Source of the DNA: Trueperaceae bacterium
GTDB taxonomy: Bacteria > Deinococcota > Deinococci > Deinococcales > Trueperaceae
Assembly: GCA_965215565.1 (NCBI GenBank)
Contig: CBDCDZ010000004.1
Span: 1,376,001 to 1,440,000, forward strand
Direction of reading: 5' to 3'
DNA length: 64,000 nucleotides
The notes under the pieces: generated by a model
Told to the model about the DNA's origin: nothing
The model's database searches: none
Seen by the model: only the letters and a program-made list of their open reading frames with translations
Part shown: positions 35,656 through 40,751 of the stretch, in pieces
Position numbering within the stretch: position 1 is the first letter of the stretch
Layout: each line of letters begins with the position of its first letter
Program-made: the position numbers and the translations under genes

Positions 35656-35684
35656 TTGACACTCTACGTGAGGTTTGCTACACT
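35656..35684 (+). promoter_or_regulatory. Sigma70-type promoter of the RNA array
   Basis: TTGACA-17 nt-TACACT, ending 8 nt before the first Y-like RNA. Confidence 0.85.
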
Positions 35685-35692
35685 TCTAATTC

Positions 35693-35760
35693 GCGGACCG
35701 AAGAGACTTCGTTACCTGACTTTCCCTCAGACCTAACCCGAAGTTTCATGCCTCGTCCGC
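35693..35760 (+). ncRNA. Y RNA-like unit Y1 (minimal, no tRNA module)
   Basis: GCGGAC-C-GA/TC-GTCCGC bulged helix; AGACTTCG/CGAAGTTT stem; CCGA-N9-GTTACC; pyrimidine-rich loop. Confidence 0.75.
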
Positions 35761-35978
35761 CAATCTTTGAGAAAGGGAGACACTCACCGCTTGTGAGGTC
35801 GTGGACGCTATGAATAAACATTTTGTACAACCCGAACACGGCTCCATCCTGAGCGCCGAGTCCACCTGGTTACTCCAGCGTGATTCGCGGCGAGCATAAG
35901 GATATTAAGGTGAGTTGGACCCTTCGAATACTCTTAACCCCTAAAAACTGAATAGTACTCACCTTAATTTGGAGCAAT

Positions 35979-36115
35979 AAACGGGCCGAAGATGTTTCGT
36001 TATCTTGACTATGGAGTCCTGCAGGTTCAAATCCTGCCTCATCTTCGGATGAGTGGCGGAACTGGTAGACGCGAGAGAGCTTAGCTCTTATCGAAACGTC
36101 ATCCCTTGCCCGTTT
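35979..36115 (+). ncRNA. Y RNA-like unit Y2 (YrlA-like, permuted class II/Leu-like tRNA module)
   Basis: AAACGGGC-C-GA/TT-GCCCGTTT; T arm GCAGG-TTCAAAT-CCTGC; acceptor CTCATC-TTCG-GATGAG; D arm GGCGGAACTGGTAGACGC. Confidence 0.88.
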
Positions 36116-36231
36116 TTATAAGCAGTCCTACTGCATGTCTTGAAGACAATGCGAGTGCCACCACTGAATAAGCAGATCGGTGTGGCGCTTCTCATCTCAA
36201 AAATATGCGTAGGCAGAGGATACTTATGTCT

Positions 36232-36479
36232 GAAGGAGTTGCCTAAATGGGAGGGCGCAGCAAAAACATTCGGAGGCTGTCGCAAGCAGCGGGAGTACGA
36301 CTTGCTCTTTGGACGGGCGCATCGCGCCTAAACGTCTGAAGTGTGAGGTGCACGCCACAAGGTTTACAGATTGCACCTATAGCGGCCTACGGAAGTAGGT
36401 GGGACAAAGCAGCAAGGGAAGCAGGTTTTCCAAGGTGTGCTTTGCGTACTCTGTGCGGGTTCGAGTCCCGTCTCCTTCA
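36232..36479 (+). ncRNA. tRNA-like RNA with a very large structured insertion
   Basis: Acceptor GAAGGAG/CTCCTTC; D arm GCCT-AAATGGGA-GGGC; T arm GCGGG-TTCGAGT-CCCGT; ~195 nt of multi-hairpin sequence between the D and T arms. Confidence 0.75.
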
Positions 36480-36532
36480 CTACTAGCACTGAGGTTTTTC
36501 GTCTTCTATTACGCTTATGGAGTTATTCGTCA

Positions 36533-36708
36533 GATGGACCGAAGAGGTTTCGTTGTCGCACCCGTCAGGATTATGGTTCGCGGCTGAGCGGTAGGGCGCT
36601 GCAACTCGAGCAGAACCAAGTAAGGCGAAAGGCTGCGCTTGCCCTAGTTGCAGAGAGGGTTCGAGTCCCCCAGTTCACAATCTAGCGGAGCTTCACACCT
36701 TGTCCATC
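36533..36708 (+). ncRNA. Y RNA-like unit Y3 (non-permuted tRNA-like module)
   Basis: GATGGAC-C-GA/TT-GTCCATC; CCGA-N9-GTTGTC; CTGCAACT/AGTTGCAG stem followed by T-loop GGG-TTCGAGT-CCC. Confidence 0.75.
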
Positions 36709-36720
36709 CTTATTACGTTT

Positions 36721-36793
36721 GGTGCCATCGTTTAGCGGTCTAGGACTCGAGCCTTTCACGTTCGCAACAGGGGTTCAAATCCCCTTGGCACTA
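36721..36793 (+). tRNA. tRNA-Glu (TTC)
   Basis: GGTGCCA/TGGCACT; anticodon arm CGAGC-CT-TTC-AC-GTTCG; T arm AGGGG-TTCAAAT-CCCCT; CCA not encoded. Confidence 0.9.
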
Positions 36794-36810
36794 TCAAACT
36801 CCTCGCTTAT

Positions 36811-36942
36811 ATGTGGGCCGAAGCGTGTCCGTTATCGACTTCTAATCGGCGGGTCGCGGGTTCGAATCCTGCCTGACACCATGCGTGGTGTCAGTAGCTC
36901 AGTGGCAGAGCAGCTTTCGGGCATACACAATCTTGCCCACAT
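36811..36942 (+). ncRNA. Y RNA-like unit Y4 containing a circularly permuted tRNA-Arg(TCT)-like module
   Basis: ATGTGGGC-C-GA/TT-GCCCACAT; CGA-CT-TCT-AA-TCGGC; T arm GCGGG-TTCGAAT-CCTGC; acceptor CTGACACCA-TGCG-TGGTGTCAG; D arm GCTC-AGTGGCA-GAGC. Confidence 0.9.
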
Positions 36943-36946
36943 CTTT

Positions 36947-37020
36947 AGCGCCATCGTCTAACGGCAAGACTCGAGACTTTGACTCTCGTAATAGAGGTTC
37001 GAATCCTCTTGGCGCTTCCA
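36947..37020 (+). tRNA. tRNA-Gln (TTG)
   Basis: AGCGCCA/TGGCGCT; CGAGA-CT-TTG-AC-TCTCG; T arm AGAGG-TTCGAAT-CCTCT; encoded CCA. Confidence 0.93.
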
Positions 37021-37034
37021 TATTCTTCTCGCCT

Positions 37035-37108
37035 GGTGCCATCGTCTAACGGCAGGATTCCTGGTTCTTACCCAGAGGATAGAGGTTCGAATCCTCTTGG
37101 CACCACCA
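37035..37108 (+). tRNA. tRNA with CTT (Lys) anticodon on a Glu/Gln-type body
   Basis: GGTGCCA/TGGCACC; CCTGG-TT-CTT-AC-CCAGA (C27-A43 mismatch); 4-nt variable loop; encoded CCA. Confidence 0.82.
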
Positions 37109-37109
37109 C

Positions 37110-37237
37110 AACTAAGCCGAAGGGCGTTCGTTATCGGTCAGAGCCCCCGAAAGGGGAGGTCGCTGGTTCAACTCCAGCCTAGCCGCAAGGCTCAGTAGCT
37201 CAGGGAAACAACGCGAATGTCCACCCCTTGCTTAGTT
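37110..37237 (+). ncRNA. Y RNA-like unit Y5 (tRNA module opened in the D loop)
   Basis: AACTAAGC-C-GA/TT-GCTTAGTT; TCGGTCAGAGC, CCCC-GAAA-GGGG, AGGTC, T arm GCTGG-TTCAACT-CCAGC, AGCC-GCAA-GGCT, TAGCTCAG. Confidence 0.87.
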
Positions 37238-37248
37238 TTTCTATCAAG

Positions 37249-37490
37249 AGCGAGCCGATTGGGTTTCGTTATCGCCTGTCACGCTGGCGGTGCAGGTTCA
37301 GGAGCCTTCAGCAGCAGATGCTAACTGGTTATAGATGCGCTGGGTTCATAACGGGATGCTACCCGTCGCGTGGACTGCTCCCGCTAGATGCTGATGACTC
37401 CTTCCCACCTAGCGAGAGCTAGTCGTCTAATGGTTAGGACACCAAGTCGGAAGCAATCTCGACATACCGGAGCCCGCCACCTTGCTCGCT
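37249..37490 (+). ncRNA. Y RNA-like unit Y6 with a permuted tRNA-Asp(GTC)-like module and ~100-nt T-loop insertion
   Basis: AGCGAGC-C-GA/TT-GCTCGCT; GC-CT-GTC-AC-GCTGG; CTAGC-GAGA-GCTAG; D arm GTCT-AATGGTTA-GGAC then A-CCA. Confidence 0.82.
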
Positions 37491-37499
37491 TTATTTTGT

Positions 37500-37601
37500 A
37501 ACGGGCCGACGCAGTTCGGTTATCACAGGTTCGATTCTTGTTGGACCCATACGCGGGTCCACGCCTATGGAGGCAAGCTCGAGCTGTCCCTCTTGCCCGT
37601 T
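37500..37601 (+). ncRNA. Y RNA-like unit Y7 (classical YrlA architecture)
   Basis: AACGGGC-C-GA/TT-GCCCGTT; T arm ACAGG-TTCGATT-CTTGT; TGGACCC/GGGTCCA; D-like GCCT-ATGG-AGGC. Confidence 0.85.
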
Positions 37602-37792: not shown

Positions 37793-39385
37793 ATGCAAAA
37801 GTTCCATAAGCTCTTCTCACCCACCAAGACGGCGCAAAACCGTCCGCTGGATAGGTCGCAAATCAAGAATAGCGCGGGCGGGTACGTCTGGGCGCTGGAC
37901 CCGTGGAAGAGGCTCGAGCGCTTCCTCATCTTGGGGACGGAGGGCGGCACCTTTTACGTCCGCGAAGCGCCTCTTACGGTAGAGAACGCTGAAAACGTCG
38001 TCAAGCTCCTCACGGAAGATGGTGTCCGCGTCGTCGAGCGAGTCGTAGAGGTCAGCACGCAAGGTCGCGCCCACAAGAATGACCCGGCGCTCTTCGCCCT
38101 GGCGCTCGCGTTCACGGTAGGTGACGTGGACACAAAGCGTGCGGCGGAAGCGGCGCTGCCTAAGGTGGCGCGTACCGGCACGCACCTCTTCACCCTCATG
38201 ACCTACGTGAGCGAGATGCGCGGTTGGGGTCGTGTGCTGCGCCGTGCGGTGGCGGGTTGGTACGCCACTAGGGACGTGCAAGCCCTCGCGTACGGCGTGA
38301 CCAAGTACGCTCAGCGCGGCGGCTGGACGCACCGAGACGCCCTGCGTTTGGCGCACCCTAAGACGGATGACGCCGAGCGTGACGCGCTGTACCGTTACGT
38401 CACGGGGCACGGCGACAAGCTGAAGGAGGTGAGCGGCGAATGGGTTGACTACTTAAAGGCAGTCGAAGCAGTGAAGACCGAAACGGACGTGCAAGCGGTC
38501 GTGGACGCCATCACGCGCTACAACTTGCCGAGAGAGGTCATCCCCACCGAGATGCTCCGCAAGAGCGAAGTCTGGTCAGCGCTCCTGGCGCGTATGCCTA
38601 TGACTGCGACGATTCGCAACCTCGCGACGATGACCCGCGTCGGCTTGCTCACATCCATGAGTGAAGCTGCGGACGTTGTGACAGAGCGCATCACGGACGA
38701 AAAGGCGCTCCGCAAGACAAGGGTCCACCCCATCGCCATCCTCGCCGCGCTGATGACCTATAGCGCAGGGCGCGGCGCAAGAGGTAAGGGAACGTGGGAG
38801 CCCGTGCAAGAGGTTGTGAACGCACTCGACACCGCGTTCTACCGTTCGTTTGAGAACGTCGTGCCGATGGGCAAGCGCATCCTCATGGGGCTGGACGTAT
38901 CCGGCTCGATGACCTGGGGTGAAGTGGGTGGCGTACCCGGTCTGACGCCCCGCGTTGCAAGCGCTGCGCTCGCGCTGGTCACGGCGGCGACTGAACCTAA
39001 GCACACATTCATGGCGTTCTCGCATGAACTCGTGCCCGTCAAGATTTCGCCGCGTCAACGGCTGGACGACGTGGTGAAGCAACTGGACAGGATGCCTTTC
39101 GGCGGGACGGACGCCTCGCTGCCGATGCTTTACGCGGCGCAGAAGGGGCTCGAGGTTGACGCCTTCGTCGTCTTGACCGACAGCGAGACTTGGTTCGGCA
39201 AGCAGCACCCTGCCGAAGCGTTGCTCGAGTACCGCCGCAAGACGGGCATCCCTGCCAAGCTCATCGTCGTCGGGATGCTTGGCAACCGTTTCACGATTGC
39301 GGACCCGTTTGATGCTGGCATGTTGGACGTGGTCGGGTTCAGCACGGATATACCCACAGTTATTGCGGATTTCATTCGCAAATAG
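37793..39385 (+). CDS. rsr: Ro60 ortholog (TROVE + vWA domain Y RNA-binding protein)
   Basis: NSAGGYVW, RLERFLILGTEGGTFY, GWGR, RGGWTHRDALRLAHPK, MPMTATIRNL, MIDAS DVSGSM, GGTD, TDSET, DAGMLDVVGF. Confidence 0.97.
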   Translation: MQKFHKLFSPTKTAQNRPLDRSQIKNSAGGYVWALDPWKRLERFLILGTEGGTFYVREAPLTVENAENVVKLLTEDGVRVVERVVEVSTQGRAHKNDPALFALALAFTVGDVDTKRAAEAALPKVARTGTHLFTLMTYVSEMRGWGRVLRRAVAGWYATRDVQALAYGVTKYAQRGGWTHRDALRLAHPKTDDAERDALYRYVTGHGDKLKEVSGEWVDYLKAVEAVKTETDVQAVVDAITRYNLPREVIPTEMLRKSEVWSALLARMPMTATIRNLATMTRVGLLTSMSEAADVVTERITDEKALRKTRVHPIAILAALMTYSAGRGARGKGTWEPVQEVVNALDTAFYRSFENVVPMGKRILMGLDVSGSMTWGEVGGVPGLTPRVASAALALVTAATEPKHTFMAFSHELVPVKISPRQRLDDVVKQLDRMPFGGTDASLPMLYAAQKGLEVDAFVVLTDSETWFGKQHPAEALLEYRRKTGIPAKLIVVGMLGNRFTIADPFDAGMLDVVGFSTDIPTVIADFIRK

Positions 39386-39533: not shown

Positions 39534-40751
39534 ATGATGCAAGTAGATAGCATTTCTGTCTTCGGTCAACACGACGAAAAGACGTTGAAGCAGCTTAAAG
39601 ATGTAGCGACGAGGGCTGAGAAAGTCGCCCTCATGTCAGACGGACACTTGGGCTACATCATGCCCATCGGCGGCGTTGCAGCGTACGACAATAAGGTGTC
39701 TGTCGCAGGAATTGGATTTGATATCGCGTGCGGCAATGCCGCGATTAAAACGGATTTGACCCTGGGGCAACTCGAGCCCAACCTCACCGCGCTAGCCGAC
39801 GAAATCGCTGAGGTCATCTCCTTTGGCGTCGGACGCAAAAACACCTCAGATGACGCATCTGTAAACGATCCCCTTTTTGAGGACGCTGCTTGGGAAATAG
39901 TTCCAACGAAGAAGGGCGTGCGCCAGCGTCTCTTGAACAAGGCGCGTAACCAGCTTGGCACGGTAGGCTCGGGCAATCACTATGTGGACGTCTTTGCAGA
40001 CGAGGAAGGCGTGATTTGGGTTGGGGTGCACTTCGGCTCTCGCGGCTTCGGTCACACTATCGCCTCCACCTTCATGGCACTTCATCAGGGCGGCACCTGG
40101 AGCGATAAGGGTAAAGAAACCGAGGCACTTCTCAGCTTGGACGACGAGTTGGGCAAGGATTACTGGGCGCTCATGACGCTCGCGGGGCGCTACGCTTACG
40201 TCGGGCGCGAGTGGGTCGCGCGCAAGGTCGTGGAGATTTTGGGCGGGACGGAAAGAGAACTCGTCCACAACCACCACAATTACGCTTGGAAAGAGGTGCA
40301 TGACGAGCGTGAACTGGTTGTGGTGCGCAAAGGGGCGACGCCTGCGTTTCCCGGACAGAAGGGTTTCGTCGGCGGCAGCATGGGCGATGACGCTGTCATC
40401 TTACAAGGCCGAACGGATGCAGATGACGGGACAAAAGCCAAACAAGAAGCCGCCCTCTACTCCACCGTGCACGGCGCAGGTCGCGTGATGAGCCGCACGC
40501 GGGCGGCGGGTAAATGGGACTATAAGCGTAAGGTCCGCAAGACCGAAGGGCTGATTTCGCAAGCGATGATGAAGGCGTGGCTCGCCGAAAAAGAGGTCAT
40601 CTTGCGCGGCGGCGGCTTGGACGAAGCGCCGCAAGCCTACCGCCGTTTGCCTGACGTATTGGCGTCGCAGGGCGCGACTGTGGAGGTCTTACATACGCTC
40701 ACGCCGCTCATCGTGGTGATGGCGGGGGCGAATGAGTTTGACCCATATTAA
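39534..40751 (+). CDS. rtcB: RtcB family RNA ligase
   Basis: DGHLGY-MPIGG, GFDIACG, QLGTVGSGNHY, HFGSRG, HNHHN, RKGATPA, HGAGR, DEAPQAY. Confidence 0.96.
   Translation: MMQVDSISVFGQHDEKTLKQLKDVATRAEKVALMSDGHLGYIMPIGGVAAYDNKVSVAGIGFDIACGNAAIKTDLTLGQLEPNLTALADEIAEVISFGVGRKNTSDDASVNDPLFEDAAWEIVPTKKGVRQRLLNKARNQLGTVGSGNHYVDVFADEEGVIWVGVHFGSRGFGHTIASTFMALHQGGTWSDKGKETEALLSLDDELGKDYWALMTLAGRYAYVGREWVARKVVEILGGTERELVHNHHNYAWKEVHDERELVVVRKGATPAFPGQKGFVGGSMGDDAVILQGRTDADDGTKAKQEAALYSTVHGAGRVMSRTRAAGKWDYKRKVRKTEGLISQAMMKAWLAEKEVILRGGGLDEAPQAYRRLPDVLASQGATVEVLHTLTPLIVVMAGANEFDPY

Follow-up and report, generated by a model that had tools for sequence, protein, structure and literature searches.

Bacterial Y RNAs are described as binding the Ro60 orthologue Rsr through their terminal stem and as carrying the sequence motif GNCGAAN0-1G (PMC4201824), and the tRNA-like module inside them has no known partner. 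In YrlA (RF02553; Chen et al. 2014, PMC4201824; Wang et al. 2018, bioRxiv 10.1101/312249), which adjoins rsr on the same strand and combines a terminal stem with a GNCGAAG motif, this module adopts an L-shaped fold and makes tRNA tertiary contacts. The T arm is followed by a loop-closed acceptor, U8/R9 and the 5' strand of the D stem, the tertiary bases of tRNA are kept, and the 15:48 pair covaries. Yrn1 of Deinococcus radiodurans (RF01053; PMC4201824) has a metazoan-like Ro stem located at the acceptor position and, in the published layout, a D-like hairpin, an anticodon arm and a T arm. Yrn1 serves as the tether between Rsr and PNPase, and the same paper reports pseudouridine 55 in both Yrn1 and YrlA and includes an unpublished remark that deletion of the Yrn1 T arm left complex assembly unchanged. 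A tRNA-dimer model for the origin of Y RNAs is presented in the Discussion of bioRxiv 10.1101/312249. The type I permuted tRNA genes of the red alga Cyanidioschyzon merolae, eukaryotic BHB-junction precursors that mature to working tRNAs, are likewise circularly permuted at a D-loop junction (20/21) and have their acceptor closed (PMC3978253).

Here we describe a Y RNA, Y5, in which the tRNA-like domain is opened in the D loop. It is encoded in a 64,000-nucleotide stretch of a Trueperaceae genome (hereinafter, the window), 556 bases 5' of, and in the same orientation as, rsr. Searching for Ro motifs accompanied by a closing stem, we find it to be one of seven Y-like RNA genes in a 2-kb cluster (35692-37601) upstream of rsr and rtcB, with three tRNAs interspersed among them and hairpin-only Y RNAs also present. 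The main features of the locus are the following.

35656-35684, plus strand: sigma-70-like promoter TTGACA-17-TG-TACACT just 5' of the first cluster Y RNA (consensus match only)
36810-36942, plus strand: YrlA-order paralogue in the same cluster (RF02553 match at 36814-36942, 37 bits, E 6e-6)
37035-37108, plus strand: tRNA gene with a CTT anticodon, ending one base before Y5 (ARAGORN)
37110-37237, plus strand: Y5, the D-loop-opened Y RNA gene, 128 nt, with ends placed by the terminal stem
37793-39385, plus strand: rsr, Ro60 orthologue with TROVE and vWA domains, 530 aa (TROVE E 1e-43, Ro60 vWA E 9e-63)
39534-40751, plus strand: rtcB RNA ligase, 405 aa (E 1e-67)

Y5 displays the three features by which bacterial Y RNAs are recognized in sequence, namely rsr within about 4 kb on the same strand, the GNCGAAN0-1G motif near the 5' end, and a long terminal stem with a large internal loop in an RNA of 80-130 nt. 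Searching Rfam, we found that no family matches Y5 at its gathering threshold (69 bits for RF02553) or at E values up to 10, RF02553 and RF01053 included; in seven metagenome loci, the Rfam search gave only weak partial YrlA and tRNA-Sec matches on one RNA of the Y5 type (L082; E 0.38 and 0.23). Current Rfam models miss this class of RNAs, hereinafter D-opened, so Y RNA inventories are incomplete. A D-loop-opened Y RNA was not found in the literature searched, where details shown in figures could escape a text search.

Within Y5, the elements are arranged as follows, all on the plus strand.

37110-37131: 5' strand of the Ro stem, with the GCCGAAG motif at 37116-37122 (fold, motif, covariation)
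37131-37135: TTATC motif common to most Y RNAs of the cluster (sequence comparison within the cluster)
37136-37144: 3' half of the D arm, G18 G19 U C A21 followed by the D-stem 3' strand GAGC at 37141-37144
37145-37156: shortened anticodon arm CCCC-GAAA-GGGG, 4 bp closed by GAAA (fold)
37157-37161: variable loop AGGTC, with C48 at 37161 (alignment)
37162-37178: T arm, 5 bp with the 7-nt loop TTCAACT (fold, covariation)
37179-37195: acceptor CTAGCC-GCAA-GGCTCAG, 6 bp and one bulge, GCAA cap, no CCA end (fold)
37196-37203: 5' half of the D arm, U8 A9, the D-stem 5' strand GCTC at 37198-37201, and A14 G15 (alignment, covariation)
37204-37212: A-rich linker returning to the Ro stem (fold)
37213-37237: 3' strand of the Ro stem, with CCCTTG (fold, covariation)

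Within the Ro stem, G18G19 and the D-stem 3' strand come first, followed by the shortened anticodon arm, the variable loop and the T arm, and then by the capped acceptor, U8A9, the D-stem 5' strand and A14G15. On the evidence of sequence and comparison, the domain enclosed by the stem is a tRNA sequence with a circular permutation in the D loop, between positions 15 and 18. The initial annotation had already joined the 3' segment TAGCTCAG (37196-37203) and the 5' segment TCGGTCAGAGC (37134-37144) into a D arm through pairing of GCTC with GAGC, and both segments and both pairing strands lie where it placed them; the CCCC-GAAA-GGGG hairpin and the GCAA-capped acceptor with its single bulge, which it also described, are likewise present. 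The two halves of the D arm stand, but the TC at 37134-37135 does not belong to them because it falls within TTATC, a motif that most Y RNAs of the cluster have in common, so the break can be placed only between 15 and 18. Likewise, the short capped hairpin is present at the position of the anticodon arm, but this arm has shrunk rather than been replaced, given that relatives keep longer arms, one of them with an intact Asp GUC loop.

In its minimum-energy fold (-48.1 kcal/mol, z -2.63; 1 of 200 shuffles equally stable), Y5 has the terminal stem, a CGAA internal loop, an upper stem of 10 bp and a four-way junction; the GAGC/GCTC helix that closes this junction has a pair probability of 0.90-0.91. 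The split pattern AGAGC..GTTCRA..TAGCTCAR has a single match in the window and none in 100 shuffles. With the exception of U33 and the CCA end, the domain contains the near-invariant tRNA bases in the list given in PMC10424219. The tRNA-profile score of the core rises from 13.7 bits in the native order to 21.3 bits upon re-permutation (positions 4-67), and computed rotation places its maximum at an opening in the acceptor loop; for comparison, 49 of 50 held-out real tRNAs score 5-43 bits, whereas none of 200 shuffles obtains any score. Re-permutation improved the profile score in all 24 scored members of the 26 D-opened RNAs collected, and relaxed ARAGORN calls a tRNA in 17 of the 26 re-permuted sequences versus 5 in the native order.

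Y5 shares with YrlA the position next to rsr, the motif, the terminal stem, the succession from T arm through closed acceptor to U8/R9 and the D-stem 5' strand, the tertiary bases and the covarying 15:48 pair. In YrlA, however, the D arm forms an intact local hairpin 3' of the acceptor, and the Ro stem is an extension of the anticodon stem. In Y5, the D arm is split, with its 3' half opening the domain and only its 5' strand following the acceptor; the anticodon arm stands as a capped hairpin of its own, and it is from the D loop that the Ro stem departs. The claim that the Ro stem is grafted at the D loop, in a topology different from that of YrlA, is supported by the covariation of the split D stem and of the 15:48 pair and by the failure of the YrlA arm order for Y5. 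Yrn1, from the same phylum, resembles Y5 in its metazoan-like Ro stem, both strands of which are kept (GCCGAAG and CCCTTG), and in the hairpin that precedes the T arm. Unlike Y5, Yrn1 lacks U8A9, A14, the variable loop and a full acceptor, and its T arm is the last full hairpin, with no full D arm, whereas in Y5 a full acceptor and a D strand follow the T arm.

The likeness to the permuted tRNA genes of C. merolae (PMC3978253) extends to the circular permutation, the D-loop junction and the closed acceptor, and raises the question whether Y5 is a permuted pre-tRNA, from which RtcB and RNase P would remove the Ro stem, ligate 15 to 18 and open the acceptor to yield a tRNA-like product. The presence of rtcB in the locus, the cleavage of Mycobacterium smegmatis YrlA by RNase P and the ARAGORN call of tRNA-Asp on one re-permuted relative of Y5 (in genome G134) are all compatible with such a pathway. 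However, the break at 15-18 in Y5 is accompanied by a Ro stem and by the loss of the anticodon loop: instead of the 7-nt anticodon loop and 7-bp acceptor of permuted tRNA genes, there is a tetraloop and a bulged 6-bp acceptor without CCA, and ARAGORN does not call the re-permuted sequence. Furthermore, the arm lengths vary freely among the relatives, and we consider a pre-tRNA very improbable.

Among Deinococcota, a strict pattern search recovered Y5 orthologues in 7 of 364 genomes, from three genera (reversed control, 0). Rsr is found in 12 of the 128 genomes of the family, and a covariance model built from six Y5 orthologues matches 8 of the 128, all of them among the rsr-bearing 12. Parsing of rsr loci adds G027 and G073, with a GTTT/AAAC D stem, and G134, with three paralogues and one degenerate copy, so that the D-opened layout is found in 10 of the 12 rsr-bearing Trueperaceae genomes; none was seen in the rsr-locus stretches examined from G033 and G114. 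In the G134 locus (L040 617-1500), the Y RNA paralogues number four or five and have an altered, GCCGCTGATG-like Ro motif, and one of them has an intact Asp anticodon arm; these paralogues may be decaying or may be fitted to a changed Rsr.

In metagenomes, a pattern that leaves the 5' D strand free matched 97 loci, 21 of which (17 distinct) are D-opened. The remaining 76 are mostly chance matches, although L083/L119, L099/L167 and L134 have good T arms and no D stem. In 11 of the 21 D-opened loci rsr is present in the examined DNA (Rsr identity 43-58%), and many adjoin tRNA arrays; rsr was not seen in the examined DNA of the other 10, which spans 3-5 kb in L080, L091 and L114. The latter three loci contain clusters of several Y RNAs, D-opened ones included, and the neighbours in L080 look phage-like. 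The L095 Rsr shows 77-78% identity to proteins that bear the labels Gaiellaceae and Solirubrobacteraceae (3 among the 120 matches listed), so that the group to which this locus belongs is probably Thermoleophilia, a second phylum, and the D-opened layout beside Ro60 genes apparently spans two phyla. In this probable Thermoleophilia group (L089, L094, L095, L108, L111 and L151), rsr and the Y RNAs are preceded by tRNA arrays in which the gene order is conserved and Trp comes last, with 5-18 genes in the examined DNA, and in some loci the two Y RNAs are separated by a short, degenerate copy of the start of rsr. Among viral contigs, the strict pattern gave no matches, and looser patterns gave at least 120, 7 and 27 loci with YrlA-order RNAs and one D-stemless RNA only, none being a full D-opened RNA; in plasmids, the L089 RNA gave tRNA-level matches only.

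This distribution bears on the notion that Y5 is a paralogue that has decayed and lost its function, or that its arrangement is due to chance. Many paralogues do coexist in the cluster, and some of those in G134 are decaying, but Y5 is retained with compensatory changes in seven genomes of three genera, shuffled sequences do not produce the split pattern, and the same layout recurs in a distant lineage, all of which makes decay or chance hardly credible. We conclude that the D-opened Y RNA is a real, conserved RNA architecture, for which a function can be proposed by analogy.

Covariation was assessed in a MAFFT alignment (A2) of 25 of the 26 D-opened RNAs, one degenerate G134 RNA (L040:1279) being left out; the D-opened RNAs of L090, L091, L092 and L155, recognized later, are not part of it. 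The initial annotation had named unpaired GCTC/GAGC in homologue alignments as the observation that would speak against its reading; in A2, 93.8% of the split D helix is paired, and three of its four pairs show two-sided changes. The 15:48 pair, which played no part in choosing the sequences, covaries as well (G-C in 16, A-U in 4, G-U in 2, unpaired in 3), the A-U form being found in G134, L107 and L080. The D helix and 15:48 together show 11 two-sided cells versus 2.3 +/- 1.3 in shuffles (0 of 500 as high), counts that overstate the signal because the 25 members are related and were picked for their ability to form a D stem. Slid-register controls are 19-41% paired versus 92.6% in the true register of the D helix and 15:48. 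The D stem occurs as GCTC/GAGC, GTTT/AAAC, GTTC/GAAT, GTGA/ACAC, GCCC/AGGC and GCTA/AAGC; several of the two-sided changes stem from the G134 paralogues with degenerate Ro motifs, and the differences may have been inherited from different parent tRNAs rather than shaped by later selection. Among six close homologues, two-sided changes occur in 14 of 36 predicted pairs, spread over the Ro stem, T stem and acceptor, and the GCCGAAG motif is invariant in all six.

Not all of this evidence points in the same direction. The D stem is invariant among the 6-7 closest homologues and is thus uninformative there either way, RNAalifold does not predict it on the 25-member core alignment, and its single-sequence probability is at least 0.5 in 9 of the 26 members (weak in the other 17) versus 11 of 21 real tRNAs. 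Moreover, the existence of a D-stemless class (L022, L099, L134, L139 and L196) implies that the D stem is dispensable. These observations are compatible with the split D halves being non-pairing relics, Y5 then being a three-hairpin Y RNA like the published Yrn1 model. Nevertheless, the two-sided changes in the D stem and 15:48, the pair probability of 0.9 in Y5 itself, and the exact tRNA spacing of U8, A9, A14 and A21 are at odds with relics, and we regard this explanation as quite improbable. The bases G10, A14, A21, U54, U55, C56 and A58 are invariant in 25 of 25 members, and the elbow bases are near-invariant across the two lineages.

The location, the Ro motif, the terminal stem, the arm order and the covarying D stem and 15:48 pair of Y5 are established at the level of sequence. 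We propose, with a probability of roughly 0.65, that Y5 is a Y-type RNA with a D-loop-permuted tRNA domain, which is likely cut from a stress-operon transcript and likely bound by Rsr through the terminal stem. By analogy with the published Y RNAs, its predicted closed tRNA core would serve to tether Rsr to an enzyme of RNA decay or repair that recognises tRNA, such as PNPase. Transcription would start from the promoter at 35656 and would include the tRNA that ends one base upstream of Y5, the two being likely co-transcribed, with Y5 subsequently processed out of the stress-operon transcript. The core would be L-shaped, held by the contacts 8:14, 15:48, 18:55, 19:56 and 54:58, and, as in Yrn1 and YrlA, U55 is predicted to be converted to pseudouridine; both PNPase and TruB are encoded in the genome. 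Positions 16-17 of tRNA lie outside the core contacts, and therefore a break there should leave the L intact. In contrast to YrlA, the Ro ring would be suspended from the D-loop side by two short single-stranded linkers, and both arms of the L would remain free. The domain likely acts as a tRNA-shaped handle on Ro60.

The lengths of the anticodon and acceptor arms vary widely among the members, and both arms are capped, from which it follows that Y5 cannot be charged or decode. Given that the core bases are invariant whereas the arm lengths vary, the working part is likely the elbow or a nuclease-resistant fold rather than the arms. An alternative is that Y5 binds Rsr mainly in order to block or regulate it, the tRNA fold serving only as nuclease protection, with no specific effector. 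A Y RNA is reported to inhibit Rsr in 23S maturation, and nuclease protection has been proposed for the tRNA module (PMC4201824); stable loops capping both arms of Y5 would also be in line with such a role. However, near-invariant elbow bases across two lineages are more than a simple hairpin needs, and hairpin-only Y RNAs are already available in the same cluster, so we consider a purely blocking or protective role unlikely and favour the tethering function. If YrlA and the D-opened RNAs share a requirement, it must involve reading of the elbow or core, not of the arms, and a second permutation that keeps the core and moves the Ro60 attachment is a natural control for the search of a partner. 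The occurrence of Y5-type genes beside YrlA genes in the same clusters suggests that they likely provide a second geometry or a second partner for Rsr.

With regard to origin, the initial annotation had suggested that tRNA bodies were captured several times at different junctions. That the D-loop junction is distinct from the YrlA junction holds, and repeated capture is plausible, given that five D-stem sequences besides GCTC/GAGC occur in D-opened RNAs, that the G134 Asp-like RNA with its retained GUC loop is broken after GG at 20/21 instead of 15/18, and that the YrlA-order RNAs in the cluster of Y5 carry different D arms. Among 589 collected tRNAs, GTTT/AAAC occurs 8 times, GCCC/AGGC 6 times, GTGA/ACAC twice, GTTC/GAAT once (in an Asp tRNA) and GCTA/AAGC not at all. 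However, D-opened RNAs have more acceptor bases in common with same-lineage YrlA RNAs (0.51 and 0.68) than with YrlA RNAs from the other lineage (0.38 and 0.51), and the two D-opened groups share 0.44 with each other, with base composition and kinship as confounders throughout. Because the acceptors are closer to those of own-lineage YrlA, a shift of the break along a capped T-acceptor module, or gene conversion among paralogues, fits equally well. In L092, a D-opened and a YrlA gene lie side by side with near-identical acceptors, and such pairs offer a direct test of the tRNA-dimer model, which yields both forms by trimming at different points. The A-rich linker common to both D-opened groups hints at a single origin. 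Either one origin with homogenisation or repeated re-permutation would account for the pattern, and Y5 itself probably derives from a tandem tRNA pair or from a YrlA-type paralogue trimmed at a different point. Its parent tRNA was sought among the tRNAs of the genome (best match, Ile) and of the loci (best match, Arg), with scores too close for an assignment.

The D-opened class also offers a testable alternative reading of Yrn1. In 17 RF01053 matches, a GG just precedes the second hairpin, a mini-hairpin of 2-3 bp follows the T arm, and RNAalifold predicts a closing GGGC/GCCC helix (95% paired), so that the family has GG, hairpin, T arm and mini-hairpin in the same cyclic order as Y5. Several loci additionally encode RNAs with the order TTATC, GG, hairpin, T arm and hairpin and with no D stem. 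Tentatively, and with the balance of our judgement against it, these forms may be arranged in a degeneration series from the D-opened core of Y5 through the D-stemless RNAs to Yrn1. We accord about the same limited credence to the broader idea that D-opened RNAs constitute a separate, widespread bacterial Y RNA architecture that arose by repeated sliding of the permutation point along tandem tRNA arrays, with Yrn1, the prototype of a PNPase tether, as a degenerate member. Should this be the case, the GG that precedes the second hairpin would be the true elbow partner in Yrn1, rather than the hairpin to which the published layout assigns the D arm. This would account for the presence of pseudouridine 55 and the absence of dihydrouridine in Yrn1, and Y5 would be a well-folded model for the unsolved tether domain of RYPER.

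The GGGC/GCCC helix of Yrn1 was also considered as a D stem, and this assignment was rejected because its covariation is weak (not significant, 59 of 500 shuffles) and because it lies 5' of GG, on the wrong side. The published ACUUC/GAAGU helix is 82% paired and its covariation is likewise not significant in these matches. In the Yrn1 family (L049 1504-1626 and other RF01053 matches), a TTC near the 5' end is complementary to a GAA after the T arm, crossing GGGC/GCCC, which suggests a pseudoknot that is absent from the published model.

Several other RNAs of the Y5 cluster have unusual organizations. The tRNA at 37035-37108 combines a Gln/Glu-like body with a CTT anticodon, and a similar tRNA lies directly 5' of the Y5 orthologue in G121. 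The YrlA-order RNA at 36810-36942 retains, 5' of the T arm, an anticodon-like loop with TCT that is conserved in G001 and G121 and altered in other kin. At 36231-36479, there is a tRNA-shaped element with paired acceptor and T arm, whose anticodon/variable region holds about 170 additional bases; it escapes ARAGORN, and its 3' end gives a weak tmRNA match (E 0.032). The YrlA-order RNA at 37246-37492 has an insertion of about 100 nt in the T loop, possibly a small mobile RNA element, which is absent from the G001 orthologue (L017 4137-4284), whereas G071 (L035 5544-5784) has a similar-looking T-loop insertion in a different YrlA copy. Finally, the Y RNA at 36532-36708 apparently contains a D-like arm, a Cys-like anticodon loop, a long insertion and a T arm, i.e., the normal tRNA order, and, if so arranged, would represent a further junction type.
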